Part shown: piece after piece, positions 7,791-30,972 of the stretch
Layout: each line of letters begins with the position of its first letter
Position numbering within the stretch: the stretch's first letter is position 1
From: Amphiscolops sp. MND2022
Lineage: Eukaryota
Length of the DNA: 64,000 nucleotides
Direction: 5' to 3'
NCBI GenBank assembly: GCA_964187785.1
Contig: OZ076412.1
Coordinates: forward strand, 32,612,001-32,676,000
The notes under the pieces: model-generated
Told to the model about the DNA's origin: nothing
Seen by the model: the letters and a program-made list of their open reading frames with translations, nothing else
Databases searched by the model: none
Program-made: the position numbers and the translations under genes

Positions 7791-8261
7791 TTACGTCTTC
7801 TGATAGTTAGTTGTGGTCATATTCACAGCCAAGTGGTTAGTTAATATTGAATGGTCATAAGTGTTACGACATGTGCTCGGGTCGTCGTTAGGCGTTAAGT
7901 TTATCCTAACGGATTTTGTAGGAGTGTAAAAACTCCTTGTTTCATTTTCTGGTTCTTCATCAATACTTTCTTTTACGTTTTTCCCTATTATAGGTTTCAA
8001 CGGTCTCAACATTTCTTTCTGAGACTCTACGAGGAGATTTTTGATTTCGGAAGATATTTCCTCTTTCAAAGAAGCTCTCAAGCTCTCACGAAGACTATTT
8101 TCCACTCTGGGGGAATTCGCAATAGAAGGTCCCGCAATGCTTGCGTCTTGCTCTGGATGACAAACGTTTTCCAATATTATTGGTGAAATTAAACCTTCAC
8201 TTACACTTTCGGTGATCTCCTGCTGATTGTTACTTCTCTTTTGACATATTGTTGTCGACAT
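7791..8261 (-). CDS. LTR-encoded N-terminal Gag extension; ORF reads out of the 3' LTR into flanking DNA
   Basis: 156-aa ORF. The first ~133 codons lie in the LTR and match sequence directly upstream of gag at 28277-28623 and 39550-39896; the last ~23 codons are flank. Confidence 0.7.
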   Translation of the reverse strand: MSTTICQKRSNNQQEITESVSEGLISPIILENVCHPEQDASIAGPSIANSPRVENSLRESLRASLKEEISSEIKNLLVESQKEMLRPLKPIIGKNVKESIDEEPENETRSFYTPTKSVRINLTPNDDPSTCRNTYDHSILTNHLAVNMTTTNYQKT

Positions 8262-8600
8262 CTTCGGAAAAAAGATTCAATTTTGGATTTTTAATTGACT
8301 TTGAAACTATTTTTCAACAAAGTTGAGATGTGGGCTTTTAATCAGAGACAAATTGTACAACTGTTTTATACCAGAAATAAAAGACTGAGTCCCTCAGAAA
8401 TTGAGGCACCTCATATTTATACCATCCTAGCATCATTTGATCACGTATAAATTCCTAATTATCCCAAAACAATTAGTCATTCCCTGTATTTTTGATGAAA
8501 GAAATCATTTATATCCCAAATTTGCGTCGACATTCCGTCAAATTCAAGACACGACAATTTCAATCTAGTATCAGTCATCAACCATGATCATATCGTTTCA
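7862..8600 (-). repeat. Full-length 739-bp terminal 3' LTR of the array
   Basis: Minus strand begins TGAAACG (8600) and ends CGTAACA (7862), an imperfect inverted pair. It is preceded by a purine tract and followed by unrelated DNA, whereas internal copies are followed by a PBS-like sequence. TATAAATA at 8421-8414. Confidence 0.8.
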
Positions 8601-8625
8601 TTCCGGCGTCCTTTTGTTTCCTCCC
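8601..8625 (-). promoter_or_regulatory. Probable polypurine tract
   Basis: Minus strand GGGAGGAAACAAAAGGACGCCGGAA|TGAAACG directly upstream of the LTR start. Confidence 0.55.
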
Positions 8626-8799
8626 AAGCAGGAAGTAGATATTATTTCAATCTGTCGAAAAGGAAATACTTCCCTGTTTTACTGCTTTGGTTCGTAGGAA
8701 AGTGGACGCGGATATGACGCTGACATGAAAAACTAATTCCTGATTTTGAATTTTGACTTGAACAAAATTATGATCAATATTTTTCAGCTTGGAATCTTC

Positions 8800-9305
8800 A
8801 ACGATGATAAGAGGGAACAAAGTTATAAAATAGCAACCAATTATGATTTATTCAATTTGGATTAGTTATGCATTTTATTTAACAAAACACGAAACAACGA
8901 AGCAATGACGTCGGCTAATCATCGGACATGACAGAGCTTCAAACAATTAACGCTAACACTAGTTTTAAATAACGCTTTGAGTATAAATGAGCGTTAGTGA
9001 TGCACCAAAACCTGTACACTGTTAATAAAAACTGATTCATAGTCCCTAAGAACTACAAAATTTACCGGATTATTCATTTTGAACCAGCGTAATGATTACG
9101 TGGTCCACAAAATGGATTTACAAATTCGAGAATATCGTACGACAACAAGCAGTATAAATATCGCGCAATAATAATTTGCGAGAGATGAAATTTACTCTTA
9201 ACTGGTAACAAGTAATAACTGTTGAAGACACGTTTAATAGTTTAGCTCATTACTCGTTATTCCATTACATGCTCATTACATCGAATTCATTAAAACAGTA
9301 TTCAT
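8800..9305 (-). pseudogene. Accessory ORF-B remnant, copy 1 (internally deleted), unknown product
   Basis: Starts MNTVLMNS, as in the longer copies at 29406 and 40679; lacks ~300 bp present there. Many stops. Confidence 0.3.
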
Positions 9306-9329
9306 TCCAGTATTCTGGACGGAATAAAA

Positions 9330-9600
9330 CAGCTATTATGATTGATTTGCGACGTAGCGTTGACAAATTTTCTTAGCTATCTTGGCAAGCTGCCAATTTT
9401 GACGAGATGCTGACGAGTATTTTAGAATGAAATTCTGACTAGCTGCCAAGTTAGTGACGTCATACCGTCGACCAATTTGGAATACTTTCAACTAGCCGAC
9501 TGCCAAGTTGCGTAGTGCTGACGTCACTAGTATACTTTTCAGGTGGCGAATGTTTCTATTGTGACGTGGCAAAAACGTTTTGCCGGAAATGCGTGAAATC
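9330..9600. promoter_or_regulatory. CRE-like motif cluster 1 (repeated at ~29440-29700, ~40720-40980, partly ~49030-49105)
   Basis: Perfect TGACGTCA at 9455-9462 and 9519-9526, repeated CTGCCAAG/CTGCCAA, and the inverted pair GGCAAAA-ACG-TTTTGCC. Confidence 0.55.
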
Positions 9601-9705
9601 TTTGTAGCTCATTTAATTTCCTGTTTTCATTTTCATTTGTGATTTGTGCGAAATAGACGTACTTTTTGTTTTTTTTTCAGTCACAGTTCATCACGAAAAT
9701 GACTA

Positions 9706-10545
9706 TTAATGTTTGAAATCAGTGATTGAAGTACCACCTGGGAAACCATAGACTGCAACCGTGTCCTCTCCCGATCCCAATGCGTTTGCAGCAGCATCCC
9801 AGACCGGGAGCGGGCAGCGACAGGGCCACTCTTGTCGGGCAAACACCTCTCCCTGATTGTCGTGGCGCGAACGAGATTTGGGGCAATTCTCCACCCTGAC
9901 ATCTGTTGTTCTGCTGGTGTTGCCTTCTTCTCCGAGGTCGTTTAGAGGGCTCGCCGGTTTAAAGATTACCTTTTTAATTATGCCGGGGGATGAAGAAGTA
10001 CGATTCAGTGTCTTTCTGTTGGACTCGTTCGAGGTATTCTGCCACTTTACTGCTCGTTATGGACTCTTCATGTGTAGAGGGTTCCTCTACAATGAACACG
10101 TCTGAACACACGCTCTCGTCGGGGCTTACACGGCTGTCCGGCAGCTCTTCGTTTCAGCTCACAGCACGGTCTTATCGCGGGGCGTACGTCTCAGGTTCGA
10201 CGGATTCTAGACTTCAGTTCAGCTTCATGTTTTTGCAATTCGAATCAAGGGAGTCCGCCGAGATATCGAAATATTCCTCCCCGTCTGCGACTGCTTCTGC
10301 CGAGGAGTGTGATACCTCTAACACTACCCTGTAGTTGGATATGAATCCTCGAGGAGGGTGTTGATGCTCGCTCTAGTAACCCTTCTTCGTCTTCGCCCGA
10401 GAAAATGTCGATCAGCTCGAAAACGTTTTTGTAGCTGTTTATCTTCTTAGCTGCTTTCTTTCCTTCTGTTATTCACTTTTGATTGTTCCAGAATGAGGTT
10501 AGAAATAATTAGGATTAAGGAAATTGTCGGGACGAGTCCCTCCAT
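9706..10545 (-). pseudogene. Accessory ORF-C, copy 1: hydrophobic N-terminus plus acidic/Ser-rich region, unknown product
   Basis: MEGLVPTISLILIISNLILEQ...VFELIDIFSGEDEEGLLE...AEAVADGEEYFDISADSLDS...DAAANALGSGED, reconstructed across frameshifts. Confidence 0.45.
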
Positions 10546-10898
10546 TCTGATTGATTAATCAATCATTTTAATCTTTATAGAATCCCAGGTGCTGACGTTA
10601 TGCCAACGTCGCGTTTTTATTGGCTGCAAATTAAATCATTCGCCTTACCAAACTTGTCAACTATTTGCTGACGTCAAGTTCGTTAGCAATTAGCTAACTT
10701 AGAATTTATCACCGTTTTGATGACGTCATAAAAATTATAGCATTAATTTTTTACCCCTGATAAGTTTTTTGTCGACGTTTTGCCGACGTCAATTTCGTTG
10801 GTGAATTACCAACTTTAATTTTTGTCACAGTTTTGATGACGTCACTTTTGGAAATTGTTTCCATTTTGTTTGATTTTCAAATTCTCAGCTGTTTTGTG
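10546..10898. promoter_or_regulatory. Putative bidirectional promoter between ORF-C (-) and gene E (+), copy 1
   Basis: TGACGTCA at 10669, 10721 and 10837; an ATTGG (CCAAT) box near 10619; perfect 16-bp palindrome GATTGATTAATCAATC at 10549-10564. Confidence 0.55.
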
Positions 10899-13800
10899 AT
10901 GTCCGCTTCTCGTGGTCTTATCGAGTCAGGTGCTGTGAGCGGCAATGGGACGCAGTTCCTGTTCTCAGATGTCGATGTGCGCGAGAGTGACGCTGACCTT
11001 TTTCATCGGCCTGCACTTGGTAAGTATTCTATTCCTAGTTCCATTAAGCTTTTGTGAAATATACTTTCAACAGATAGGCCTTTTCTGTAGCAGTATTTTC
11101 ACAGCGTAGATTTTCTTGACGCGTCGATATTAGGAATGTTTTTCAGTGCCTGGTCTGGAGTCTTTGTTTCTTCTGGTCGGAACTTCTGCTACCGTTGTCA
11201 CAGCTTCCTTACCTGATGATCTTTCTGGCATCGCCATTGAATCGCTTGAAGGTTCTGCCACTACTGTTGACGCTGTTCCTCCTGTCCTTGAGGTGCCTGC
11301 TTCTCGCGTATCCCCCATCTGTAGAAGACAGATAACATGCCGAAAAAGAAGATGTCCCCCCTCTGTCGAAGACAGAAGGCATGCATAGAAAGAAGCTGTT
11401 CCATCGGCTAGAATGGTAGTAAGTGGTGATTATCTGATTGGTTCCCCAAAGCCTGTTGCTGGGAGGCCTGGCCCTCCAGTTTTTGTACCAGGTAATGTTA
11501 TTGTCTGTTTTGCTTTGATTGGGTTCTTTCTATCATATACTGTTTGATCATGTTTGTTTAGTATTGTCTTGCAGGGTATGTTGTTTATTTGTAGGGGAGA
11601 CCTCTGGCTTTGGTGTGGAAACTATGGGGGCATCATCGAGTAAGCGTCGCCGTTCTGTGCGCTTCTCGTCCTTGAGTCGTCAATTTTATGTCAATGCCCC
11701 AGTAGTAGTTACGACCGAGATGAAATAATTGACGCTTGCATGCAGGTTTCGAGGCTTAGCGAGTTGGTCGCCACCGAGCTGGGAACCCGCACATTGGAGC
11801 CTTTCGTTTCCAGTGAGTATTAGTGTGTTACTTGTTTTTTGTGCTTTTCGTTTGTTTTGGTGGAGGGTGTCTTGTGGTTGTCACAATCCGTTGAGGTGGT
11901 TTTGTTGTTATAGGGCTTGAAGCTTTGGTTTCTCGGGTAGAGCACAGTGTGGAGAGTGTGACGCCTTCCCAGCAACAAAAGAAATGGACTTAAAGTTCGC
12001 GGAATCGACTCGGCCGTGAGATGGTCCGGGACCACCATGTTCTGGAGTTGTTTGTGAGTGGGTCGAGCACTGGCTCAGATAGGACTTTTTTCTGCATCGT
12101 TTGTCACTGAGACGTGTCAATGGAGACCCGGGGGGCAGGCGAGTTGAGTCGTCATTTCTCTGAATACCGTCATTGGCAGGCTGACGTGACTTATCGAGTT
12201 CACCAAGGATTTCCAGTTTTTAATAAACTGATGGATCCTATCGAACTGTCGGAGTCTCAGAGGAGTTATTTCCTCTCTTGTCTTTTCAAGGATAAGTCGG
12301 AAGGATTCAGCTTCCCTGAGGACCTCCTCCCGCCCAGTACACTGTGTCCCTACTAACAATGGTGAATCGTCTCGTCGAGCTGTTGCGTGCTGGCGGAACG
12401 TACGTCCTCCTACGCTGATTGTGGGATTGTTTTCAGGCAACACTGGGGCCAGACAATCAGCTATATGCGCTGAACTGGAGTAAAGATGAGTCGTTGGTAA
12501 CTGTGTTCGCTTCTGTCCAAGGCGTGACTCTGATGTGTTTCTTCCCTAGGTTTTGGTGGGTGGGATACTATGGTCTATTTTGTCACTGATTGTAATTGGT
12601 TGTTGTTTGCAGGCGTTAGTTTGTCGCGCACTGTGGCCGCGAGTGTTGAGGATGTTACTGTCACGAGTGTCATCCTTCAAAGAATATTCAGTGATATTCG
12701 AGGAAAGTGGTGAGAAGCAGTCGTGTTTTGTCAGAACTTGGGAAGACAATTTTTTGTTGGACATCTGTGCGAATGTTGAGGTGCTTGGTCAACGCGTGCC
12801 TGCTTCCGAGTCGTCTTGAGCGGTGTGTAGTGTAGAGTCTAGTCGCATGTCCGTGAGTATTCGTGGTGGTCCTCAGGCTTTCCTGTGAGTATTAAGCGAT
12901 GCTCGTACTGATGGACGCTTGTTTAAATACTGTCGAGAGTTCACAAGTGATGTGTGTATGCAGTGCTACCGTCAGACCGACCAGGAGATTTTCGGTATAC
13001 TGGAGGTGACAGCGATGATTGACTTTTTATTGCTGAGATTGAAAACTGCCTTGCCTGAACCGTAGATGGAGGATTCGCCAACATTGCGTCGCTGTGTTGT
13101 CGCTGGCTGTGTCATGTTCTTTGATCTCCGTGCTGTCATCCGGTAGTTGCTTTCTGTGTGGGAAAGTGTTCGCGAATTCGTTCGTTATACTGGACCCCGG
13201 CAAATCAAGTCTACTTCTGATACGGTAATTATTACTTGTGTTGTCTGTTTTCTCGTTTCTATTTCGTCTTTTATCTCGGCTGATTGGGAAATGTGGATGA
13301 TTGGTCCGCAGGCTGAACCTTGCGGTTTTGTTTTAGATGCGAGAAGAGACAGTTTGATCTATTCGGATGAAAGAGGCGACTTGCGTTTGAAATTATTGCT
13401 CCACGTGTTGGATTGTTGTTATTATTGGTGTTTCTTGTTGTGTGTGATATAGGGAGAAAAAAGAAAGAAAAAACAGGTGGAGCTAAAAGAGGAGGGTGAT
13501 CTGGTTTTTAGTTTGTGATTATAATTTGTTTGTTCTGTTGCAGATTGGTGTAATTTCCCAAAGCAATTGTCTGGACGAGACGACTACAGTTTTCACAGTT
13601 ATTCGGAGCTCTGTCATTTTATCTACTGTGTATTGTCACGAACTCGGAAATTGTCGTCGCTTCCTGGGATTCAGGCATGAGACGATTATATGGATCGCGA
13701 TAAACTGGCTGAGATAGAGAAAATTGACTTGAGGGTTTCTTGTTGACAGGCGAGTTCGGTGACGAATTGCAACAAGGGGCCACCGTGAAGTGCGAGTGTT

Positions 13801-14766
13801 TAAAAAACGAGTTCTTGAATTCTTGGATCATTTCGTTGACGTCGTTTCATTGTTGTATTTGATTTCGTCCAACGTTATGCAAGGGCTGTTTTCCTTTTGT
13901 TCAGATACTTTACTCGAAGGGGACGATTTTCGTGGTTTAGTTCAAGTGGTTCAAGTGGTTCCAGTGATCTTCAAGTGGTTTCGTAAGTTGCTTTCTGTTC
14001 TGAAGAAGAGTGGATGTTTGAGTGAGGATGAGTCTGTGGCCAGTTGTGAAGAACTTACGACTTGTGCTGTTGATGCGCGTGCACGACCTTCGATTAGTGA
14101 GAAGAACGCTGAAGATATTCCTGACATCGTGGTTATCTATTAGCTGTTTAGTTTCTTGTCACGGGGGCATTTGTGACGAACTTTTAAAATCTGTTGCCTT
14201 GTTGTTGTGCAGCGTCGGAAATTGTATCCAACTGTTTCATTCGAACTGGGTGGATGTGCTGTTACTCCAGCTCTGCTGTCGTCCTGCATTACGGGGGTAC
14301 AGCGTTATGTGCTGTCGCCCTGTTATAAGCAGAAAAGTTTTGTTACGAAGAGCACTATGGAAGCTGTACGTGATGCTATCCGTGGGTCTCGGTCTTTTTT
14401 ATCTGATGCGAGTTTCGATCCTTGGGCTGGCTTGTTGAGTGGAGATCGTGATGCCTTCGTCAAGCAGTACGTCGATGAGTTTACGTCTTTTTTGGCTGGG
14501 ATACATATCAGTATTTGTATGGTGCTAAGAGGCATAGTAGTCGAGTGGCCACTGGTGAGCTGTCTGAATCTTCGTCCGGTGTGAGTGGTGAGAAACTGTT
14601 TGCTGGTGCGGGAGCGGCCTTCAGTAAATCTGCACGCGTTGCTGAGGCGTCTAAAGCGTGTCCGTCTGTTTGTAGTAACGATAGTGACGAGAGTCTTTCG
14701 AAATTATTGAAGAAGAAAAGTAAAGGCCGAAAAAGTCGAAATTCAGGATCACGTTCCAATTTGTAG
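10899..14766 (+). pseudogene. Spliced accessory gene E, copy 1: BED-like C2H2 finger and hAT-transposase-like motifs, ~1,000 aa reconstructed
   Basis: GT-AG introns at 11020-11146, 11492-11594, 11813-11913, 12497-12612, 13225-13452 and 13496-13543 join open frames with matching phases. Motifs: FFCIVCHRDVSMETRGAGELSRHFSEYRHW (C-x2-C-x16-H-x5-H), YSVIFEESG...CFVRTW, LRAVIR.LLSVWESVREF, basic C-terminus KKKSKGRKSR. In-frame stops and frameshifts are present. The spliced gene is well supported; the hAT identity only moderately. Confidence 0.7.
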
Positions 14767-14778
14767 AAGAAATAACTT

Positions 14779-17165
14779 TCACGCTGTATTGAACTTTGAA
14801 ACCTTGCTTGTTATGTGTTTATTTATTTCTTTTATTGAGTGTCCTTTTTGGACATTTGGTTGTGAATCTGCTGGAAATATAAAATCTGGTAAGACAAAAA
14901 GCTCCCCAGCAGAGTATTCAAAATAGCCTGGTGTCAAAGAAAAAGCAAGTGAAAAGGCCGTATTATGCCAGTAATTGGACTCTGAATCATGTCTTTTCCT
15001 TTTAGTGAGTCGTAGTGATAGCGTCAAGTTGTCTGAAGTCAGGAATAGCAAAGGCTTAAGATTAGTTCGCAATTTGTACTTTGCTGTTTTTCTCGGATAA
15101 TATCCGACGACTCTAGTCGGTGATTTTCAGGGAATAGGTGGATTTTCAGTGAGTGGGGGGCGATGTATATATGGACTATCCCCTACGTCTGTATTGAGAT
15201 TTGAGAAATCTGGTAACGACGCCGTGACGTCATTCGTGTTTTCGGTTTGATTTTCTGTTACGTTTTGCATCGACTTTTCGTCATTCGTGTTCAACTTTTT
15301 TAGTGTCGCAGCTTGTTGTTTATTGCTTGCAATTTCTGACGTCTCGTATTCGTCAGTTTGCTTTCCAGTATCCATTTCCCAAGATACTGCATACCATTCG
15401 TTGTGCGACACATTGACGTCCGGATCTGGGAGATATTCGTTTGATCGTACAGTGACGTCAGGTATTCGTTGTTCTGGCACGGTAGGACGTATTCGGATTC
15501 TGTGTAGAATTTGTGTATATCTTTTGCCAATTTTCCGTATCGTGTAATTGTTATTTGATAGTACTTTTTTGACTATTTACGGTCCCATCCAAATGCAATC
15601 TAGAAAAGTATATTTTGTCGATTGGCTGTCAGCTTACGGATTAAGAATATAGCAACAGTCAATTATTTTGAGCAGAGCTGCAGACGTTTTGCGGTGTAAA
15701 ATGTTTTGTATTCGAGATAAGACAGCATGAAATTGTCCTTTGCTGTCGCGCGCACTTCGTCAATTTGGTTTTGGAGTTGCTCTGCTATATCTGAGTTAGG
15801 TCTAGTTTTCCATTTTGGCTTGATGCCCAGTTTTAAGTCAAGAACGTTGTAAGGTTTTCGTCCATGAAATACCGTAGATGGCGCGCAGCCTAGAGTTCCA
15901 TGGTAGGTCTTGTTGTAGTTCATGACTGCAATTTGGACATATTTGTGGCATCTTGAACGTTTCTCTCCCGTTAATATTTTTAAAGCTGTTTTGATAGAAG
16001 CGTGTGTTCGTTCCAAGATTCCAAATATTTGTGCATGTTCTGTGAACGCATAAGTACGCGTGTCTTGTCATGACGTCGACAATGCATCGTCCAGTTGTTT
16101 TTGCTGTAACGTTCTGCGTTGGATATGCAAATAGATAGCGCGAGAATACATCGATCACGGTTACAATGTTTTGGTATTCTGCGGAATTTGGAAGATTCGG
16201 TAATATATCGATCTGTAGGATATCTTCCGGTCCCAAGACGTGTTCTGTATTGTTGATCATTTTTGGTCTGATTTGATTTTTACTAATTTTCTTGTATTTA
16301 ATACTGACTTCGCACTGTGAAACCCATTGTTTGATTCTTCTGGCTAATCCTGGGTAGTATTGCTTCGATCAGCATTCTTGGATCAACTTCGTGATTCCTG
16401 GGTCTTTTCCCATTTGTCCGTGAATTGCTCTTAGAAGTTCTGTTATTAGGTGTTCGGGGAGTAATATTTTGATGGTGGGTGACTTGTCTGCTTTCCCCAT
16501 AGTATTTCCTCATTAATATGCCGTCTTTGACTATTAGTCTATTTTCGTGGACTAATAAGCGTTTTGCGTTCGTATTCGTTTGTAATAGGTGTTTGTTGTA
16601 TTCTTCGCAGATGAGTTTTCGTTTTATTGCTTTGAACACCAAGTCCGCGTCTTGCTCGACTCTGATGCGTGCATCTTCTTTTATTGCCCTAAAAGGTGTA
16701 TGATGCCTTGTTTTTTGGAATTGGGGTTGTTTCTTATTAGCCAGTTTTAGTTTTGTCGTCTCTTCGTTGCGCGCATTTTGTCTCGCTTGCTCTTTTTGTA
16801 GCAGAATTTCTTCCTCAAATTCAAGAGTTTGTTCTGGAAGGAAGAAAAGTTATTCTTCGTCTGCAACGTCTGGTGATTGTAAATTGACTTGTATCGGTCG
16901 GATTGTGATATCGTTTTTGATTTTCAGTTCAAATCTTTCTTCGAGATTGAGCTCGATCCTTGACAAAAAATCAGCTGCTGTGTTTTGCGTCCCCGCTACG
17001 TGCATGATGTGGAAATTGAATTGTAGCACATAATCACTTGCATTCCATAGTGTGGGAGGGATCGCTTTTGTTGGAAAAAGCGTGTTACCGACCTAATGTC
17101 AGTCATTACAAGTGTCGGTAGATTTGTTTCCCACAAGATTTGGCTGTAGTCTACAAATGCGTGAT
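14779..17165 (-). pseudogene. pol 3' part, copy 1 (C-terminal tail, integrase, partial RNase H)
   Basis: HGQMG...YYPGLARRIKQWVSQCEV, LQIDILPNLP...IDVFSRYLFAYP, ILERTHASIK. Frameshifted; the second-Asp segment is deleted. Confidence 0.88.
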
Positions 17166-18349
17166 ACTACAGTTTTCACAGTTATTCGGAGCTCTGTCAT
17201 TTTATCTACTGTGTATTGTCACGAACTCGGAAATTGTCGTCGCTTCCTGGGATTCAGGCATGAGACGATTATATGGATCGCGATAAACTGGCTGAGATAG
17301 AGAAAATTGACTTGAGGGTTTCTTGTTGACAGGCGAGTTCGGTGACCAATTGCAACAAGGGGCCACCGTGAAGTGCGAGTGTTTAAAAAACGAGTTCTTG
17401 AATTCTTGGATCATTTCGTTGACGTCGTTTCATTGTTGTATTTGATTTCGTCCAACGTTATGCAAGGGCTGTTTTCCTTTTGTTCAGATACTTTACTCGA
17501 AGGGGACGATTTTCGTGGTTTAGTTCAAGTGGTTCAAGTGGTTCCAGTGATCTTCAAGTGGTTTCGTAAGTTGCTTTCTGTTCTGAAGAAGAGTGGATGT
17601 TTGAGTGAGGATGAGTCTGTGGCCAGTTGTGAAGAACTTACGACTTGTGCTGTTGATGCGCGTGCACGACCTTCGATTAGTGAGAAGAACGCTGAAGATA
17701 TTCCTGACATCGTGGTTATCTATTAGCTGTTTAGTTTCTTGTCACGGGGGCATTTGTGACGAACTTTTAAAATCTGTTGCCTTGTTGTTGTGCAGCGTCG
17801 GAAATTGTATCCAACTGTTTCATTCGAACTGGGTGGATGTGCTGTTACTCCAGCTCTGCTGTCGTCCTGCATTACGGGGGTACAGCGTTATGTGCTGTCG
17901 CCCTGTTATAAGCAGAAAAGTTTTGTTACGAAGAGCACTATGGAAGCTGTACGTGATGCTATCCGTGGGTCTCGGTCTTTTTTATCTGATGCGAGTTTCG
18001 ATCCTTGGGCTGGCTTGTTGAGTGGAGATCGTGATGCCTTCGTCAAGCAGTACGTCGATGAGTTTACGTCTTTTTTGGCTGGGATACATATCAGTATTTG
18101 TATGGTGCTAAGAGGCATAGTAGTCGAGTGGCCACTGGTGAGCTGTCTGAATCTTCGTCCGGTGTGAGTGGTGAGAAACTGTTTGCTGGTGCGGGAGCGG
18201 CCTTCAGTAAATCTGCACGCGTTGCTGAGGCGTCTAAAGCGTGTCCGTCTGTTTGTAGTAACGATAGTGACGAGAGTCTTTCGAAATTATTGAAGAAGAA
18301 AAGTAAAGGCCGAAAAAGTCGAAATTCAGGATCACGTTCCAATTTGTAG
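17166..18349 (+). pseudogene. Gene E last-exon fragment (duplicated)
   Basis: Copy of 13583-14766. Confidence 0.8.
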
Positions 18350-18359
18350 AAGAAATGAC

Positions 18360-20975
18360 TTTCACGTTGTATTGAACTTTGAAACCTTGCTTGTTATGTG
18401 TTTATTTATTTTCTTTTATTGAGTGTCCTTTTTGGACATTTGGTTGTGAATCTGCTGGAAATATAAAATCTGGTAAGACAAAAAGCTCCCCAGCAGAGTA
18501 TTCAAAATGGTCTGGTGTCAAAGAAAAAGCAAGTGAAAAGGCCGTATTATGCCAGTAATTGGACTCTGAATCATGTCTTTTTCTTTTAGTGAGTCGTAGT
18601 GATAGCGTCAAGTTGTCTGAAGTCAGGAATAGCAAAGGCTTAAGATTAGTTCGCAATTTGTACTTCGCTGTTTTTCTCGGATAATATCCGACGACTCTAG
18701 TCGGTGATTTTAAGGGAATAGGTGGATTTTCAGTGAGTGGGGGGCGATGTATATATGGACTATCCCCTACGTCTGTATTGAGATTTGAGAAATCTGGTAA
18801 CGACGCCGTGACGTCATTCGTGTTTTCGGTTTGATTTTCTGTTACGTTTTGCATCGACTTTTCGTCATTCGTGTTCAACTTTTTTAGTGTCGCAGCTTGT
18901 TGTTTATTGCTTGCAATTTCTGACGTCTCGTATTCGTCAGTTTGCTTTCCAGTATCCATTTCCCAAGATACTGCATACCATTCGTTGTGCGACACATTGA
19001 CGTCCGGATCTGGGAGATATTCGTTTGATCGTACAGTGACGTCAGGTATTCGTTGTTCTGGCACGGTAGGACGTATTCGGATTCTGTGTAGAATTTGTGT
19101 ATATCTTTTGCCAATTTTCCGTATCGTGTAATTGTTATTTGATAGTACTTTTTTGACTATTTACGGTCCCATCCAAATGCAATCTTGAAATGTATATTTT
19201 GTCGATTGGCTGTCAGCTTACGGATTATGAATATAGCAACAGTCAGTTATTTTGAGCAGAGCTGCAGACGTTTTGCGGTGTAAAATGTTTTGTATTCGAG
19301 ATAAGACAGCATGAAATTGTCCTTTGCTGTCGCGCGCACTTCGTCAATTTGTTTTTGGAGTTGCTCTGCTATATCTGAGTTAGGCCTAGTTTTCCATTTT
19401 GGCTTGATGCCCAGTTTTAAGTCAAGAACGTTGTAAGGTTTTCGTCCATGAAATACCGTAGATGGCGCGCAGCCTAGAGTTCCATGGTAGGTCTTGTTGT
19501 AGTTCATGACTGCAATTTGGACATATTTGTGGCATCTTGAACGTTTCTCTCCCGTTAATATTTTTAAAGCTGTTTTGATAGAAGCGTGTGTTCGTTCCAA
19601 GATTCCAAATATTTGTGCATGTTCTGTGAACGCATAAGTACGCGTGTCTCGTCATGACGTCGACAATGCATCGTCCAGTTGTTTTTGCTGTAACGTTCTG
19701 CGTTGGATATGCAAATAGATAGCGCGAGAATACATCGATCACGGTTACAATGTTTTGGTATTCTGCGGAATTTGGAAGATTCGGTAATATATCGATCTGT
19801 AGGATATCTTCCGGTCCCAAGACGTGTTCTGTATTGTTGATCATTTTTGGTCTGATTTGATTTTTACTAATTTTCTTGTATTTAATACTGACTTCGCACT
19901 GTGAAACCCATTGTTTGATTCTTCTGGCTAATCCTGGGTAGTATTGCTTCGATCAGCATTCTTGGATCAACTTCTTGATTCCTGGGTGTTTTCCCATTTG
20001 TCCGTGAATTGCTCTTAGAAGTTCTGTTATTAGGTGTTCGGGGAGTAATATTTTGATGGTGGGTGACTTGTCTGCTTTCCCCATAGTATTTCCTCATTAG
20101 TATGCCGTCTTTGACTATTAGTCTATTTTCGTGGACTAATAAGCGTTTTGCGTTCGTATTCGTTTGTAATAGGTGTTTGTTGTATTCTTCGCAGATGAGT
20201 TTTCGTTTTATTGCTTTGAACACCAAGTCCGCGTCTTGCTCGACTCTGATGCGTGCATCTTCTTTTATTGTCCCAAAAGGTGTATGATGCCTTGTTTTTT
20301 GGAATTGGGGTTGTTTCTTATTAGCCAGTTTTAGTTTTGTCGTCTCTTCGTTGCGCGCATTTTGTCTCGCTGGCTCTTTTTGTAGCAGAATTTCTTCCTC
20401 AAATTCAAGAGTTTGTTCTGGAAGGAAGAAAAGTTATTCTTCGTCTGCAACGTCTGGTGATTGTAAATTGACTTGTATCGGTCGGATTGTGATATCGTTT
20501 TTGATTTTTAGTTCAAATCTTTCTTCGAGATTGAGGTCGATCCTTGATAAAAAATCAGCTGCTGTATTTTGCGTCCCCGCTACGTGCATGATGTGGAAAT
20601 TGAATTGTAGCACATAATCACTTGCATTCCGTAGTGTGGAAGGGATCGTTTTTGTTTGAAAAAGCGTGTTACCGACCTAATGTCAGTCATTACAAGTGTC
20701 GGTAGATTTGTTTCCCACAAGAATTGGCTGTAGTCTACAAATGCGTGATACATCACTAAGGACTCTTTGCAGTAGATTGACATTTTTATTTGTGCTGGGT
20801 AAAACACTTTCGATCCGAATGCGACTGGGGCGAAAATATTCTTTTTTGATTTGAGTTTTTTATCCTTGTCTTCTATCATTAGCTCATAGCCTGAGGCGCG
20901 AAAGCTGGCATCCGCCATTAGGACGGATTGGCGTCCTGTAATTAGTTTTTTGAAAGCCAATCCGCATGCTTATGT
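18360..20975 (-). pseudogene. pol 3' part, duplicated copy (tail, integrase, RNase H)
   Basis: As 14779-17165, plus LMADASFRASGY...APVAFGSKVF...CKESL (RNase H). Confidence 0.88.
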
Positions 20976-21081
20976 GTGTTTTGGTGAATTACCAACTTTA
21001 ATTTTTGTCACCGTTTTGATGACGTCACTTTTGGAAATTGTTTCCATTTTGTTTGATTTTCAAATTCTCAGCTGTTTTGTG

Positions 21082-24000
21082 ATGTCCGCTTCTCGTGGTC
21101 TTATCGAGACAGGTGCTGTGAGCGGCAATGGGACGCAGTTCCTGTTCTCAGATGGCGATGTGCGCGAGAGTGACGCTGACCTTGTTCATCGGCCTGCACT
21201 TGGTAAGTTTTCTATTCCTAGTTCCATTAAGCTTTTGTGAAATATACTTTCAACAGATAGGCCTTTTCTGTAGCAGTATTTTCACAGCGTAGATTTTCTT
21301 GACGCGTCGATATTAGGAATGTTTTTCAGTGCCTGGTCTGGAGTCTTTGTTTCTTCGGGTCGGAACTTCTGCTACCGTTGTCACAGCTTCCTTACCTGAT
21401 GATCATTCTGGCATCGCCATTGAGTCGCTTGAAGTTTCTGCCACTACTGTTGACGCTGTTCCTCCTGTCCTTGAGGTGCCTGCTTCTCGCAAATCCCCCA
21501 TCTGTAGAAGACAGATAACATGCCGAAAAAGAAGATGTCCCCCCCTCTGTCGAAGACAAAAGGCATGCATAGAAAGAAGATGTTCCATCGGCTAGAATGG
21601 TAGTAGGTGGTGATTATCTGACTGGTTGCCCAAAGCCTGTTGCTGGGAGGCCTGGCCCTCCAGTTTGTGTACCAGGTAATGTTTTTTTCTGTTTTGCTTT
21701 GATTGGGTTTTTCTATCATATACTGTTTGATCATGTTTGTATAGTATTGTCTTGCAGGGTATGTTGCTTATTTGTAGGGGAGACCTCTGGCTTTGGTGTG
21801 GAAACTATGGGGGCATCATCGAGTAAGCGTCGCCGTTCTGTGCGCTTGTCGTCCTTGAGTCGTCAATATTATGTCAATGTCTCCAGTAGTAGTTACGACC
21901 GAGATGAAATAATTGACGCTTGCATGCAGGTTTCGAGTCTTACCGAGTTGGTCGCCACCGAGCTGGGAACCCGCACATTGGAGCCTTTCGTTTCAGTGAG
22001 TATTAGTGTGTTACTTGTTTTTTTGTGTGTTTTCGTTTGTTTTGGTGGAGGGTGTCTTGTGGTTGTCACAATCCGTTGAGGTGGTTTTGTTGTTATAGGG
22101 CTTGAAGCTTTGGTTTCTCGGGTAGAGCACAGTGTGGAGAGTGTGACGCCTTCCCAGCAACAAAAGAAATGGACTTAAAGTTCGCGGAATCGACTCGGCC
22201 GTGAGATGGTCCGGGACCACCCTGTTCTGGAGTTGTTTGTGAGTGGGTCGAGCACTGGCTCAGATAAGACTTTTTTCTGCATCATTTGTCACTGAGACGT
22301 GTCAATGGAGACCCGGGGGGCAGGCGAGTTGAGTCGTCATTTCTCTGAATACCGTCATTGGCAGGCTGACGTGACTAATCGAGTTCACCAAGGATTTCCA
22401 GTTTTTAATAAACTGATGGATCCTATCGAACTGTCGGAGTCTCGGAGGAGTTATTTCCTCTCTTGTCCTTTCAAGGATAAGTCGGAAGGATTCAGCTTCC
22501 CTGAGGACCTCCTCCCGCCCAGTAAACTGTGTCCCTACTAACAATGGTGAATCGTCTCGTCGAGTTGTTGCGTGCTGGTGGAACGTACATCCTCCTACAC
22601 CGATTGTGGGATTGTTTTCAGGCAACACTTGGGCCAGACAATCAGCTATATGCGCTGAACTGGAGTAAAGATGAGTCGTTGGTAACTGTGTTTGCTTCTG
22701 TCCAAGGCGTGACTCTGATGTTTTTCTTCCCTAGGTTTTGGTGAGAGGGATACTATGGTCTGTTTTGTCACCGATTGTAATTGGTTGTTGTTTGCAGGCG
22801 TTAGTATGTCGCGCACTGTGGCCGCGAGTGTTGAGGATGTTACTGTCACGAGTGTCATCTTCAAAGAATATTCAGTGATATTCGAGGAAAGTGGTGAGAA
22901 GCAGTCGTGTTTTGTCAGAACTTGGGAAGACAATTCTTTGTTGGACATCTGTGCGAATGTTGAAGTGCTTGGTCAACGCGTGCCTGCTTCCGAGTCGTCT
23001 CGAGCGGTGTGTAGTGTAGAGTCTAGTCGCATGTCCTTGAGTATTCGTAGTGGTCCTCAGGCTTTCCTGTGAGTATTAAGCGATGCTCGTACTGATGGAC
23101 GCTTGTTTAATTACTGTCGAGAGTTCACAAGTGATGTGTGTATGCAGTGCTCCCGTCAGACCGACCAGGAGGTTTTCGGCATACTGGAGGTGACAGCGAT
23201 GATTGACTTTTTATTGCTGAGATTGAAAACTGCCTTGCCTGAACCGTAGATGGAGGATTTGCCAACATTGCGTCGCTGTGTTGTCGCTGGCCGTGTCATG
23301 TTCTTTGATCTCCGTGCTGTCATCCGGTAGTTGCTTTCTGTGTGGGAAAGTGTTCGCGAATTCGTTCGTTATACTGGACCCCGGCATGTCAAGTCGACTT
23401 CTGATACGGTAATTATTACTTGTGTTGTCTGTATTCTCGTTTCTATTTCGTCTTTCATCTTGGATGATTGGGAAATGTGGATGATTGGTCCGCAGGCTGA
23501 ACCTTGCGGTTTTGTTTCAGATGCGAGAAGAGACAGTTTGATCTATTCGGATGAAAGAAGCGACTTTCGTTTGCAATTATTGCTCCACGTGTTGGATCGT
23601 TGTTAATATTGGTGTTTCTTGTTGTGTGTGATATAGGGAGAAGAAAAAGAAAGAAAAAACAGGTGAAGCTAAAAGAGGAGGGTGATATGGTTTTTAGTTT
23701 GTGTTTATAATTTGTTTGTTCTGTTGCAGATTGGTGTAATTTCCCAAACCAATTGTCTGGACGAGATGACTACAGTTTTTACAGTTATTCGGAGCTGTGT
23801 CATTTTATCCACTGTGTATTGTCACGAATTTGGAAATTGTCGTCGCTTCCTGGGATTCAGGCATGAGACGGTTATTTGGATCGCGATAAACTGGCTGAGA
23901 TAGAGAAAAATGACCAGAGGGTTTCTTGTTGACAGGCGAAATCGGTGACGAATTGCAACAAGGGGCCACCGTGAAGTTTGTTGACGTCGTTTCATCGTTG

Positions 24001-24310
24001 TATTTGATTTCGTCCAACGTTATGCAAGGGCTGATTTCCTTTTGTCCAGATACTTTACTGGAGGGGGACGGTAAACGTGGTCTGTTCAAGTGGTTCAAGT
24101 GATCTTCAAGTGGTTTAGTAAGTTGCTTTCTGTTCTGAAGGAGAGTGGATGTTTGAGTGAGGATGAGTCTGTGGCCAGTTGTGAAGAACTTACGACTTAT
24201 GCTGTTGATGCGCGTGCACGACCTCGATTAGTTAGAAGAACGCTGAAGATATTCCTGACATCGTGGGTTATCTATTAGCTGATTAGTTTCTTGTCACGGG
24301 GGCATTTGTT
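21082..24310 (+). pseudogene. Gene E, copy 2 (internal and 3' deletions)
   Basis: Same exons and splice sites (e.g. CTTG|GTAAGT, TTTTTCAG|TGCC). Deletions at ~23975 and ~24310; most of the promoter is missing upstream. Confidence 0.7.
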
Positions 24311-27300
24311 AACGGGAAAATTAAAATCTGGTAAGACAAAAAGCTCCCCAGAAGAGTATTCAAAATAGTCTGGTGTCAAAGAAAAAGCAAGTGAAAAGGC
24401 CGTATTATGCCAGTAATTGGACTCTGAATCATGTCTTTTCCTTTTAGTGAGTCGTAGTCATAGCGTCAAATTGTCTGAAGTCAGGATTAGCAAAGGCTTA
24501 GGATTAGTTCGCCATTTGTACTTCGCTGTTTTTCTCGGATTACATCCGACGACTCTAGTCGGTGATTTTCAGGGAATAGGTGGATTTTCAGTGGGTGGGG
24601 GGCGATGTATATATGGACTATCCCCTACGTCTGTATTGAATTTTGAGAAATCTGGTGACGACGCCGTCACGTCATTCGTGTCTTCGGTTTGATTTTCTGT
24701 TACGTTTTGCATCGACTTTTCGTCATTCGTGTTCGTCTTTTTTAGTGTCGCAGCTTGCTGTTTATTGCTTGCAATTTCTGACGTCTCGTGTTTGTCAATT
24801 TGCTTTCCAGAATCCATTTCCCAAGATACTGCATACCATTCGTTGTGCGACACATTGACGTCCGGATCTGGGAGATATTCGTTTGATCGTACAGTGACGT
24901 CAGGTATTCGTTGTTCTGGCACGGTAGGACGTATTCGGATTTTGTGTAGAATTTGTGTATATCTTTTGCCAATTTTCCGTACCGTGTAATTGTTATTTGA
25001 TAATACTTTTTTGACTCTTTACGGTCCCATCCAAATGCAATCTTGAAATGTAAATTTTGTCGATTGGCTGTCAGCTTTCGGATTAAGAATATAGCAACAG
25101 TCAATTATTTTGAGCAGAGCTGCAGACGTTTTGCGGTGTAAAATTTTTTGTATTCGAGATAAGACAGCATGAAATTGTCCTTTGCTGTCGCGCGCACTTC
25201 GTCAATTTGTTTTTGGAGTTGCTCCGCTATATCTGAGTTAGGCCTAGTTTTCCATTTTGTCTTGATGCCCAGTTTTAAGTCAAGAACGTTGTAAGGTTTT
25301 TGTCCATGAAATACCGTAAATGGCGCGCAGCCTAGAGTTTCATGGTATGTCTTGTTGTAGTTCATGACTGCAATTTGGACATATTTGTGGCATCTTGAAC
25401 GATTCTCTCCCGTTAATATTTTTAAAGCTGTTTTGCTAGAAGCGTTTGTTCGTTCCAAGATTCCAAATATTTGGTCATGTTCTGTGGACGCATAAGTACG
25501 CGTGTCTCGTCATGACGTCGACAATGCATCGTCCAGTTGTTTTTGCTGCAACGTTCTGCGTTGGATATGCAAATAGATAGCGCGAGAATACATCGATCAC
25601 GGTTACGATGTTTTGGTATTCTGCGGATTTTGGAAGATTCGGTAATATATCGATCTGTAGGATATCTCCCGGTCCCAAGACGTGTTCTGTTTGTTGATCA
25701 TTTTTGGTCTGATTTGATTCTTACCAATTTTCTTGTATTTAATACAGACTTCGCACTGTGAAACCCATTGTTTGATTCTTTTGGCTAATCCTGGGTAGTA
25801 TTGTTTCGATCAGCATTCTTGGATCAACTTCGTGATTCCTGGGTGTTTTCCCATTTATCCGTGAATTGCTCTTAAAAGTTCTGTTATTAGGTGTTCGGGG
25901 AGTAATATTTTGATGGTGGGTGACTTGTCTGCTTTCCCCATAGTATTTCCTCATTAGTATGCCGTCTTTGACTATTAGTCTATTTTCGTAGATTAATAAG
26001 CGTTTTGCGTTCGGATTCGTTTGTAACAGGTGTTTGTTGTATTCTTCGCAGATGTGTTTTCGTTTTATTGCTTTGAACACCAAGTCCGCGTCTTGCTCGA
26101 CTCTGATGCGTGCATCTTCTCTTATTGCCCCAAAAGGTGTATTATTCCTTGTTTTTTGGAATTGGGGTTGTTTTTTATTAGCCAGTTTTAGTTTTGTCGT
26201 CTCTTCGTCGCGCGCATTTTGTCTCGCTTGCTCTTTTTGTAGCAGAACTTCTTCCTCAAATTCAAGAGTTTGTTCTGGAAGGAAGAAAATTAATTCTTCG
26301 TCTGCGACGTCTGGTGATTGTAAATTGACTTGTATTGGTCGGATTGTGATATCGTTTTCGATTTTTAGTTCAACTTTTTCTTCGAGATTGAGGTCGATCC
26401 TTGATGAAAAATCAGCTGCTGTCTTTTGCGTACTCGCTAGGTGCATGATGGGGAAATTGATTTGTAGCACATAATCACATGCATTCCATAGTGTGGGAGG
26501 GATCGCTTTTGTTTGGAAAAAGCGTGTTACCGACCTAATGTCAGTCATTACAAGTGTCGGTAGATTTGTTTCCCACAAGATTTGGCTGTACTCCAGAAAT
26601 GCGTGATACATCGCTAAGAACTCTTTGCAGTAGATTGGCATTTTTATTTGTGCTGGGTAAAACACTTTCGATCCGAATGCGACTGGGGCAAAAATATTCT
26701 TTTTTGATTTGAGTTTTTTATCCTTGTCTTCTTCTATCATTAGCTCATAGCATGAGGCGCGAAAGCTGGCATCCGTCATTAGGACGGATTGGCGTCCTGT
26801 AGTTGGTTGTTTGAGAGCCAATCCGCATGCTTATGTGTGTTTTTGATTGTGTTGTAAACAGACCAGGCCATTGCGTTGATGAACGCTCCTGAGTCAACAA
26901 GTCCATCCAATGTTTATTCACCGAACTCAAGTGGCAGGTATAACATTCGTCGTCGTTTTTTGAGTACTATGGTTGAGTGTAGGGGTATGTACGTGTCTCC
27001 ATCTTTTTCAGCTATGTATTTTTTGATTGAGTTGAGTGAGACGGGGATCCATTCTGCTTATTCTTTTTGTTGGTCATTTTTGGCGTTATGCCGTTTTTTG
27101 GTGGCGATTGCTTGTCAGTCTTCCGTTGGTGTTCCATTGCATTCTGTTGTGGTGTCATTGTTGTGTTCGGTGGATCCTCTATTAAATACGCCCTCCCAAC
27201 TACTGTTTCCTCGAAGCGCAGGTGCGGCGTAATTAGTTTTTTGATTCATCGACAGTTTAAGCTGTCGTTGGTTGGACGGAGCTTTCCGTCTTTCGTTCTT

Positions 27301-28276
27301 GTTGGTTGTGACGCTTAGGTCGTGGATGTTGGCAGAGTTGGCTCCATTCCAAAAACCTTCCGTTTTGTGAAGTTTGCCGCAAGTGTCGCATTTAAGCGTA
27401 TTGCCTGCATTGCTGTTTGTTTGGCCATTGTTTTTTCGTGTTTGTTGCCACTTGTCTCATTTCATTTTTTGGCATTCGGCTTTGAAATGGCCGAATTCAT
27501 TGCATAAAAGCAATACACCTTTTTGATTTTCTGGGTGGTATTTTCTACTGGTTTTGTTTCAGTTTTAGGTTGGGCCGTTTCTAGCACGTTTAGAGGGACG
27601 AGGGTCACCTCATCTGACGCTCCAAGGCCGTTGAGTCTCCTTTCCTTTTCTAGGCGAAGTACAATATCGTTATACGGCTTGTCCTCAAGATGCGCTTCAT
27701 TGAGTGTTTTCTTGAAGTGGTCGGGCGTTTTTGCATATATTGCCTTGTCTATGAACTTTTGGGCTTCTGCTCCAAAGGTTTCTTTTGCGGTTTTTTTAAG
27801 TACGTCCAACAATTCGTGGAGCTTTTGTGTTGATGGATCGAATTTGAGCGCATCCCTTTCGCATCTTGCTTTTGCCATCGACAGGTAGTCTCCAAAGCGA
27901 CGTTTAAAGACCGTCATTCTTTTGTCCAATGAATCTTTTTTCGTCGAGTCTTCTTTGTTACAAAACGCTTGTAGTGCGTCTCCTCGGAGCAAGGAATGAA
28001 AACAATTTATTTTCTGGTTTTCCGTGAGATGCGAATACATTTTGATATTATTACGGAAAACGACTTCGAAGAGCTCGAAATTTTCAGACTTCTCATCAAA
28101 AGTTGGAGAGTGATGCCGTTAAAGCTTTTGGACTAGACAACGTAGTGTTGTCGTTCTTGTCCGATGCAAAAAGTGTCGTGGCCACTACGGGACGCTCTTT
28201 TGACGCTGGTTGGCTTTGGGACCTTATTTTTGGGGTTTTCAGCTAGTTGATGGAGTCGTTTAAACTCCTGTCATCA
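24310..28276 (-). pseudogene. gag-pol, copy 2: gag, protease, RNase H, integrase; RT entirely deleted
   Basis: FHSLLRGDALQAF (gag), LVDSGAFINA (protease), a 360-aa RH-IN ORF at 25739-26821. Sequence just after the protease is joined directly to the RH region at ~26840. Confidence 0.9.
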
Positions 28277-28623
28277 TGTTACGACTTGTGCTCGGGTCGT
28301 CGTTATGCGTTGAGTTTATCCTAACAGATTGTAGGAGTGTAGAAACTCCTTGTTTCATTTTCTGGTTTTTAATCAACATTTTCTTTTACGTTTTTCCCTA
28401 TTTTTGGTTTCAACAGATTCAACTTTTCTTTCTGAGAGTCTATGAGGGGATTCTTGATTTCGGAAGTTATTTCCTCTTTCAAAGAAGCTCTCAAGCTGTC
28501 ACGAAGTCTATTTTCCACTCTGAGGTAATTCGCACTGGAAGGTCCGCAATGCTTGCGTCTTGCTCTGGATGACAAACGTTTTCCAATATTATTGGTGAAA
28601 TTAAACCTTCACTTATACTTTCG
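28265..28623 (-). repeat. 5'-truncated internal LTR (28277-28623) plus mutated PBS TGATGACAGGAG (28276-28265)
   Basis: Matches 7862-8211. A ~590-bp deletion (equivalent to 8212-8803) removed the TATA, ATG, LTR start and PPT. Confidence 0.8.
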
Positions 28624-28624
28624 A

Positions 28625-29406
28625 TGCTAAGATGGAACAAAGTTAAAAAATAACAACCAATTATGATTTATTCAATTTAGATTAGGTATGCATTTTAATT
28701 AACAAAACACGAAACAACGAAGCAATGACGTCGGCTAATTATCGGACATGACAGAACTTCAAACAGTTAACGCTAACACCAGTTTCAAATAACGCTTTGA
28801 GTACAAATGAGCGTTAGTGATGCACCAAAACCTGTACACTGTCAATAAAAACTGAGTCATAGTCCCCAAGAACTACAAAATTTACGGGATTATTCAATTT
28901 TAACCAGCGACATGATAACATGGTCCACAAAATTGATTTACAAATTCGAGAATATCGTACGTCAACAAGCAGTATAAATATCGCGCAATACTGATTTGCG
29001 AGAGATGAAATTTACTCTTAACTGGTAAGAAGTAATACCTGTTGAAGACACGTTTAATAGCTTAGCTCATTACTCGTCACGACAACAAGACGACATTTCT
29101 AACTTCCTTCATTATAAATGAACCACAAAGTTTAAGACACAACACTAAAAATATAAAAATATCCGCACTTTACAAAATACAAGTTTCTTCTGTGCTAAAA
29201 GATAAACTGTGTCTTCTATCCATTAAATAAGTAGAAGATTCCGTAAAATTTGAGCCTTGATACGTTTTTAATCTGATCTCCAACTTGTCGGTAATTTGTT
29301 TGACGAAAAATTGACCTGAATTTACAAGTTTCTTGCTACTTCGAATACTAAAATAGACATTGCCTAAGCGCTTTTCTTGTATCGAATTCATTAAAACAGT
29401 ATTCAT
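28625..29406 (-). pseudogene. Accessory ORF-B remnant, copy 2
   Basis: MNTVLMNSIQEKRLGNVYF...; downstream coding-like stretches (KRVFNRYYFLPVKSKF...EFVNQFCGPCYH; NNPVNFVVLGDYDSVFID) broken by stops. Confidence 0.3.
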
Positions 29407-29789
29407 TTCAATATTCTGGATGAAAAAAAAACAGCTATTTTGATTGATTTGCGACGTAGCGTTGACAAATTTTCTTAGCTAGCTTGGCAAGCTGCCAAGT
29501 TTGACGAGTTGCTGACGAGTATTTTAGAAAGAAATTCTGACTAGCTGCCAAGTTAGTGACGTCATACCGTCGACAAGTTTGGAATACTTACAACTAGCCG
29601 ACTGCCCAATTGCGTAGTGCTGACGTCACTAGTATAGTTTTCAGGTGGTGAAAATTTCTATTCTGACGTGGCAAAAACGTTTTGCCGGAAATGCGTGAAA
29701 TCTTTTTAGCTCATTTAAATTCCTGTTTTCATTTTCATTGGTGATTTGTGCGAAATAGACGTACTTTTTTTTCAGCCACAGTTTATTTC

Positions 29790-30633: not shown

Positions 30634-30972
30634 TCTGATTGGTTAATCAATCATTTTAATCTTTATCAAATCCCAGGTACTGACGTTATGCCAACGTCGC
30701 GTTTTTATTGGCTGCAAATTAAATAATTCGCTTAAGTAAACTTGCCAACTATTTGCTGACGTCAAGTTCGTTAGCAATTAGCTAACTTGGACTTTATCAC
30801 CGTTTTGATGACGTCATAATAAATTATAGCATTAATTTTTTAACCCTGATAACCTTTTTTTCGACGTTTTGCCGACGTCAATTTCGTTGGTGAATTACCA
30901 ACTTCACTGATGACGTCACGTTTTGAAATTTTTTCCATTCTGTTTGATTTTCAAATTCTCAGCTGTTTTGTG
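30634..30972. promoter_or_regulatory. CRE-rich divergent promoter, second full copy
   Basis: Three TGACGTCA motifs are retained although a flanking segment is deleted; the palindrome has one mismatch. Confidence 0.55.

Follow-up and report, generated by a model that had tools for sequence, protein, structure and literature searches.

Layout of the array

The analysed window, 64,000 nucleotides of contig OZ076412.1 from Amphiscolops sp. MND2022, consists in part of broken, rearranged tandem pieces of an element that reaches about 16 kb in complete dispersed copies with LTR pairs, rather than the roughly 14 kb proposed in an earlier note on this DNA (Table 1). Array units are 91-99% alike to each other in a self-BLAST of the window, and the feature order recurs along the array by self-BLAST and mapping, as that note had described for the other units. 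On the minus strand, the 3' end of pol (RNase H-integrase) runs from 17166 to about 15000, in agreement with the end previously placed near 14.8-15.1 kb, and is 69-82% identical to an uninterrupted pol. A target duplication cannot be demonstrated for the array, since its left LTR start is missing.

Table 1. Positions of the element-derived features in the window
Feature	Position	Strand	Remarks
3' LTR, last array unit	7862..9822	-	Same end motifs as in dispersed LTR pairs flanked by 5-bp target duplications
gag, first ~130 codons, within LTR	7863..8261	-	66% identical to residues 24-159 of gag from an uninterrupted copy
Conserved purine-rich element in LTR (formerly 'PPT')	8600..8635	-	
U3 cluster in LTR, two TGACGTCA sites and short repeats	9380..9570	.	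Sites at 9455, 9519
ORF-C, broken in window (frameshift near 10350)	about 9734..10442	-	Last ~30 codons in LTR
Head-to-head gap, E/ORF-C	10443..10898	.	Three TGACGTCA sites: 10669, 10721, 10837
Gene E, antisense, broken in window	10899..14766	+	Frameshifts near 12335 and 13750, plus stops
pol 3' part (RNase H end, integrase), frameshifted	14975..17166	-	Pfam rve, RT_RNaseH, Integrase_p58_C
Remainder of head-to-tail array (partial, internally deleted copies)	17166..49109	-	
Shared LTRs in array	28277-29917; 39550-41197	-	
LTR fragment in array	48637-49109	-	

The direct repeat of the dispersed copies starts at a motif corresponding to window position 9822, ends at one corresponding to 7862 and has the target duplications outside it, which replaces the 739-bp LTR reported earlier. 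The window LTR measures 1,961 bp after a deletion of about 300 bp at 9257/9280; complete copies measure 2.3-2.5 kb. In 15 of 20 elements, the purine-rich tract near 8625, formerly read as the PPT, lies within both copies of the LTR; in the other five it occurs once. It likely serves as a core-promoter element. Before the true LTR start, where a PPT would be expected, the tract is only loosely purine-rich. A constant TGGTGACAGGAG directly follows the 5' LTR, where a PBS would be expected, in all three families of the element, and in 5' LTR copies the gag frame continues past the LTR and through the PBS.

The proposed order of gene E, CRE-rich gap, ORF-C and second TGACGTCA cluster holds, but the second cluster is inside the LTR, and a conserved ORF-B, the supposed third cassette, is not found. 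ORF-B had been reported without coordinates and was placed inside the LTR from its position in this order; 20 LTR stretches have no conserved ORF in common, and a 102-aa frame of units 3 and 4 has no tblastn match in 32 other element stretches. At least one TGACGTCA site is present in 18 of the 20 LTR stretches. What had been viewed as a three-cassette cargo of about 6 kb is a pair of genes in about 5.2 kb.

The element family and its integral cargo

By its pol sequence and its TG...CA LTR pairs with 5-bp target duplications, the family belongs to the Ty3/Gypsy LTR retrotransposons. An uninterrupted pol carries, in order, the Pfam domains Asp_protease (weak), RVT_1, RT_RNaseH, Integrase_H2C2 and rve; its best PDB sequence match is Ty3 Gag-Pol (E 4e-45), and no Pfam match to a chromodomain is seen on it. 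A search with the zinc-finger exon of E returned 6,754 first-look candidates, and 145 of the 150 that were scored are stop-free. At 20 hand-picked loci, an LTR pair is present in 18 (10 pairs with at least 99% identity), and a script recovered 5-bp target duplications at 13, 12 of them exact; such duplications also flank 2/2 closer relatives and 3/10 distant relatives. The integrase-E-ORF-C order is kept at 19 of 20 further loci, sampled stepwise down the hit list. In this sample, which was picked through E itself, the E exon has ORF-C beside it in all 20 and integrase in 19, and none shows an E exon with its own termini.

The pol-to-LTR block is integral cargo of the element. A single nested insertion, later multiplied by tandem duplication in the window, would fit the broken copies that stand rearranged in tandem there, but it is refuted: the block recurs on many contigs in a conserved order and evolves under purifying selection. 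The check suggested earlier found dispersed blocks between the same pol and the same LTR, with their own target duplications, and upheld both the internal position of the block and an LTR lineage equipped with accessory genes of its own and a putative internal promoter region.

The cargo also spans three old families. Trees of integrase and E, built with elements from this genome only, have three deep groups in common (32/35 elements; Spearman 0.85). Two supported integrase splits contradict the E tree, so strict co-inheritance of the cassette does not hold between close families. Along the deep branch, divergence is 1.29 for E and 0.43 for integrase, making E about three times faster.

Gene E, ORF-C and the gap between them

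Gene E is predicted to contain seven exons and six GT-AG introns, which yield 1,112 stop-free codons in one copy. In a sister family, E is a single uninterrupted frame of about 880 codons, and the spliced prediction is colinear with it (30% over 793 columns, E 1e-89). Splice sites are retained in the aligned rows, with GT donors in 24/24 and 16/16 and AG acceptors in 17/17. The predicted protein proceeds from a zinc finger through a beta/alpha core and a helical domain to a basic tail (22 K/R in 112 aa). The zinc ligands C80, C83, H100 and H106 are invariant in 38-39 of 39 rows, and all exon rows of E stay below 1.9 in 19-residue hydropathy.

ORF-C encodes an acidic protein of about 240 aa on the sense strand and reaches into the LTR. 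SUMO-interacting-like motifs match 2-4 times per row in 16/16 rows, against 0.3-0.6 in shuffles, under a pattern that was defined after the motifs had been seen; on these motifs, ORF-C is likely a SUMO-binding acidic protein. An envelope role was rejected: maximum 19-residue hydropathy is 0.36-1.09 in 16/16 rows, with no hydrophobic segment, and the cargo has no env Pfam match. Pfam scans of both E and ORF-C return nothing above cut-off.

Codon comparisons place E and ORF-C under purifying selection. In stop-free copies selected by protein similarity, pN/pS is 0.27, 0.36 and 0.40 for exons of E and 0.44 for ORF-C, while control frames (three per tested region) give 1.0-1.85.

E exon 1 and ORF-C stand head to head in 20/20 elements, 366-550 nt apart, with 1-4 full TGACGTCA sites in the gap of every one. 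Where 0.004 full sites are expected, the two clusters of the analysed window hold 3 and 2; these counts were reached by 0 of 2000 resamples, in test windows that were set after the sites had been seen. The gap is a likely bidirectional promoter. The most distant family is without CRE clusters, and its sense ORF is unalignable to ORF-C.

Origin, role and known counterparts of the cargo

The lead that we moderately favour is that the ancestor of E was a catalytically dead hAT transposase. In an Atlas search with E, all seven Pfam-named rows shown are hAT-type families, with scores of 0.79-0.82 where anything below 0.9 counts as a lead only and with recognition for E below 2300. In exon 5, the predicted strand/helix order follows the RNase H pattern in a low-confidence model (pLDDT 52). 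hAT enzymes carry an Asp at the ends of RNase H strands 1 and 4; E has no conserved Asp ending predicted strands 1 and 4, in a register assigned by eye. For the last E exon, Hermes shared the first rank with unrelated rows (Z 4.4, rmsd 4.0, 52 aligned), and the region concerned was not the expected one; an Atlas search with this exon gave no usable match.

E might instead have been captured from a host or a virus, or be a zinc-finger protein of unrelated descent, and play another accessory role. Such an origin is unlikely: it accords with the lack of a significant Pfam, PDB, viral-fold or profile match, yet it leaves aside that the family-bearing Atlas neighbours are all hAT-type, that domain order and secondary structure parallel those of hAT proteins, and that no solo host copy of E occurs among the scored matches retrieved. 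Alignment of E to two hAT profiles (PRKRIR-type and Ac-type) in hhalign gave probabilities of at most 1.3%, not above those of reversed controls, and hmmsearch of E against 18 hAT frames of the same genome gave no match. Foldseek placed several integrases among the top rows, but with E of at least 0.2, not significant. Fold searches (pdb, pdb_via_wide, viral) gave no significant row, a result that excludes no fold, and PDB sequence searches found nothing. No match to PF04195 (TRP28/Transposase_28) appeared among 48 E-alignment members at E<=1. A genome search with PF14291 was silent throughout, as were its controls, and a metagenome scan gave 89 pattern matches, none confirmed. No inverted repeat of at least 40 nt surrounds E in the window. 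E as a hAT DNA transposon with its own ends was rejected, given its place between integrase and ORF-C at 19/20 loci.

Concerning function, we see an even chance that a selected, dead-hAT-derived, DNA-binding E and a SUMO-binding ORF-C, encoded head to head, keep the Ty3/Gypsy element transcribed against silencing. Both genes would be driven from the CRE-rich gap. E would bind the element's own DNA via its C2H2 finger, ORF-C would engage SUMO-dependent chromatin machinery, and together they would maintain transcription of the element despite host silencing. The reason that E keeps its introns may be that its splice sites are hidden in the packaged RNA, which is of the sense strand.

Cargo that restrains copying is an improbable alternative, in which E is a self-limiting repressor or regulates in a dominant-negative way, or the element is dampened by the antisense RNA of E. 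Repression by truncated transposases is established, and a dead DNA-binding transposase would be able to repress; the E transcript would moreover terminate next to the 3' end of pol and might base-pair with genomic RNA, a dampening mechanism also raised for plant antisense ORFs (PMC7264820). RNA alone, however, leaves the protein-level selection unexplained, and the very large number of candidates and the many LTR pairs of at least 99% identity show that the family amplifies with its cargo. We likewise consider it doubtful that E serves integration or targeting as a cofactor, attaching to LTR ends or to target DNA and acting with integrase rather than on transcription. A zinc finger joined to a transposase-like body would be suited to binding ends or targets, as would the basic tail beside a pol without a chromodomain match, but the 12 exact target duplications have no obvious common motif, and the faster divergence of E than of integrase resembles a host-facing protein more.

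The anti-silencing reading extends, tentatively and with a probability well below even, to a hAT transposase domesticated and disarmed by a retrotransposon clade and expressed together with a multi-SIM acidic protein from a single bidirectional CRE promoter. The pair would form a two-component system, encoded by the element in an animal, against SUMO-dependent heterochromatin and may have aided spread to thousands of copies. In VANC anti-silencing, an element-encoded factor acts on its own DNA against silencing. VANC proteins are accessory proteins of VANDAL elements, which are plant DNA transposons (PMC13547354), and they model E/ORF-C by analogy only.

Dead or host-domesticated hAT transposases include the ZNF862, ZBED, GTF2IRD2/EPM2AIP1 and PRKRIR types. 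E has the same predicted order of zinc finger, helical linker, RNase-H-like core and helical domain, but its keeper would be a retrotransposon rather than a host, and profile homology is not significant. In literature outside subscription journals, Repbase and supplements, we found no account of this family or of a DNA transposase kept within an LTR element.

The E/ORF-C clade is a new version, now in an animal, of antisense accessory ORFs known in plants and fungi. The earlier suggestion of a new cargo-carrying lineage is apt for its own accessory genes, but genes in the antisense slot have precedents in plant and fungal Gypsy elements. The clade is a large, selected, intron-bearing animal example in intron-rich and intron-poor forms. 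Antisense accessory ORFs are described as unlike other transposons in sequence (PMC7264820). For the present clade, another transposon class is a candidate source of the antisense gene, and ORF-C is a candidate partner. Accessory-gene origin, the gain or loss of introns within a retroelement, and counter-silencing by transposons thereby become testable.

Plant Ty3/Gypsy elements with antisense ORFs between pol and the 3' LTR include maize Grande (gene23), rice RIRE2 and Retand; gene23 is equipped with a promoter of its own and its product is nuclear, and Retand encodes TRP28/Transposase_28 (PF04195) within a pol-to-LTR distance of 2.9-6.6 kb (PMC7264820, PMC11963269). E shares with them the slot, the antisense orientation and family-wide conservation, at a pol-to-LTR distance of about 5.2 kb. 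Unlike them, it resides in an animal, spans about 1,100 aa with a C2H2 finger and no PF04195 match, and is paired with a sense ORF reaching into a 2.3-2.5-kb LTR. E has six predicted introns, whereas the word 'intron' is absent from the main text of the Retand paper. Outside plants, the antisense gene brtn occupies the same slot in Boty-like Gypsy elements of the fungi Botrytis and Sclerotinia (PMC7264820, PMC8365987), a likeness of position and orientation. Bdelloid rotifer LTR elements carry ORF3 cargo comprising env, GDSL esterase and DEDDy exonuclease (PMC5408684). Like the present family, they are LTR elements of invertebrates in which several lineages share a third ORF other than env; ORF3 products are recognisable enzymes or fusogens, whereas E has no Pfam match, is antisense and is predicted to be spliced.

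Limits of the element and its cargo

Dispersed copies of the Ty3/Gypsy element keep the order of the block between pol and the 3' LTR, with LTR pairs and target duplications of their own, confirming the earlier note's placement of this block inside the element. The cargo, consisting of the antisense C2H2 zinc-finger gene E and the acidic sense ORF-C, is almost certainly integral to the element; it transposes with the element, keeps its gene order, is under selection and is old. Two E queries returned 6,754 and 8,255 first-look candidates in the 1.07-Gb genome; these figures should not be read as copy numbers, and the two sets may share members. Twenty loci were hand-picked for spread among 150 scored matches of the zinc-finger exon and fetched. 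An LTR pair is present in 18 (at least 99% identical in 10), 13 of the 20 carry a 5-bp target duplication (by script), and the elements span 15.8-17.3 kb. At 19 of 20 further loci, chosen at steps down the E match list, integrase on the opposite strand is followed by E and then ORF-C; this sample was selected via E and so counts only cargo-bearing copies. The remaining locus has ORF-C but lacks both integrase and the last E exon, and in some older relatives the cargo is partly lost.

The feature described in the earlier note is therefore real, but its LTR, PPT and third cassette were misdrawn. Dispersed relatives found with cargo and LTR queries share a direct repeat bounded by the LTR start and end motifs (table), and CCGTA flanks both sides of one 14.4-kb relative. 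Because repeat ends, LTR pairs and 5-bp target duplications agree, the LTR measures 2.3-2.5 kb rather than 739 bp, and the window copy has 1,961 bp. In 15 of 20 elements the PPT proposed near 8625 is found within each of the two LTRs, and the second CRE cluster, counted as part of the accessory region in the earlier note, belongs to the LTR U3. No conserved ORF was found across U3, so there is no third cassette and ORF-B is dropped. Gag starts about 400 nt within the LTR, and each 3' LTR therefore ends in an open gag fragment.

Features in and around the window array
Feature	Position	Strand	Basis
Gene E	10899-14766	+	predicted, 7 exons
ORF-C	~10442-9734	-	
LTR, window copy	9822 (start motif) to 7862 (end motif)		direct repeat
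Gag start	8261	-	
Gag stretch in LTR	7863-8261	-	
Array of partial units, head-to-tail	7862-49109	-	91-99% identical, self-comparison
Small element, inverted arms of 15-nt repeats	50503-50876		repeat structure
Cys-loop ligand-gated ion channel exon (host gene)	53866-54129	+	Pfam Neur_chan_LBD, E 1e-7
Unrelated smaller Gypsy family, short LTRs, two copies	1-5600; 54614-59559	both -	68-72% mutually identical
Gag and protease-region fragments, another E-bearing-clade relative	61631-63926	+	42% and 32%

Structure, descent and origin of gene E

In one uninterrupted copy, predicted splicing of six GT-AG introns (73-135 nt each) joins E into 1,112 stop-free codons, and the splice dinucleotides are conserved among subfamilies with saturated synonymous sites. 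Three E exons have pN/pS of 0.27-0.40, versus 1.0-1.85 in control frames. Retrotransposition copies sense-strand RNA, and the introns of an antisense gene lie on the other strand. Since the copied RNA is the opposite strand, E would be able to keep its introns through its antisense orientation.

In an intron-poor sister family (gag 37-38%, pol about 52% identity), the E core is a single frame of 790-930 codons, in the same slot and orientation within LTR pairs and colinear with the spliced model (30%, E-value 1e-89); a third family is intermediate. The sister family also has a low-complexity antisense frame of 170-270 codons upstream of E (L225:5188-5703 (+), with equivalents in loci L229 and L243), possibly corresponding to E's first exons. 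Trees of integrase and E, built from 32 of 35 elements (C6_63616001, C9_48177001 and C10_29644001 left out), have three deep groups in common. Of nine supported integrase splits, the E tree recovers six and contradicts two, suggesting some cassette exchange. One copy interrupted by another element (L109/L110, C6:63616001-63636000) has a 661-codon E exon frame with a 621-nt internal repeat.

An origin of E from a hAT transposase is slightly favored. The C2H2 finger of E is invariant; the protein also has a beta/alpha core, a helical domain whose model reaches pLDDT 79, and a basic tail. By eye this layout runs parallel to hAT transposases, with the catalytic aspartates missing. The predicted secondary structure of E matches the RNase H strand/helix order, and for an 890-aa relative every Atlas row that carries a Pfam name is of hAT type, at lead-level scores. 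None of the profile and fold tests reached significance; the best hhalign register (E-value 0.46, not significant) aligns exon 5 with a PRKRIR-type profile at its first catalytic strand and its CxxH region.

ORF-C and a possible role for the cargo

ORF-C encodes about 240 aa with 15-19% acidic residues, has its last ~30 codons within the LTR and shows a pN/pS of 0.44; no hydrophobic segment was found in it. SUMO-interacting motifs combine a hydrophobic core with an acidic tail. With a pattern composed after the motifs were seen, ORF-C retains 2-4 matches per row, versus 0.3-0.6 in shuffles. E and ORF-C stand head to head in 20/20 elements, across a gap of 366-550 nt containing 1-4 TGACGTCA sites. 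In the intron-poor family the ORF-C slot holds a sense ORF that is likewise acidic but does not align to ORF-C, and the CRE clusters are missing.

On a reading to which, taken as a whole, we give an even chance, the cargo keeps the element transcribed: a shared internal promoter would drive both genes, E acting on the element as a DNA-binding, non-cutting protein and ORF-C serving as a SUMO-binding partner. E evolves faster than integrase (deep-branch divergence 1.29 versus 0.43), which fits a host-facing role.

The antisense accessory slot is already known, and the E/ORF-C cargo is a further variant. Published accounts place antisense ORFs of unknown origin in the same pol-3' LTR slot in Grande, RIRE2, Retand and Boty (PMC7264820; PMC11963269; PMC8365987). 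Rotifer LTR elements have different third ORFs (PMC5408684), and VANB/VANC are named as accessory proteins for which many contacts with the host are predicted (PMC13547354). Among the papers listed in literature searches, none deals with the retrotransposon family described here.

The window array and its neighbors

Compared with an uninterrupted relative, gag, pol and cargo carry frameshifts or deletions in every array unit. The inverted-arm element is probably a miniature inverted-repeat transposon. The Cys-loop channel exon indicates an animal genome; a likely first exon of this gene lies near 53410-53560, and an element is inserted at 54.6-59.6 kb, downstream of the channel exon. Neither copy of the smaller Gypsy family gave a match to E or ORF-C. 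Elsewhere in the genome, E matches lie ~13.6-14 kb apart on two contigs (G000 C10:2574504-2602549 and C13:16515582-16554205), a spacing that suggests further head-to-tail arrays of the E-bearing clade.
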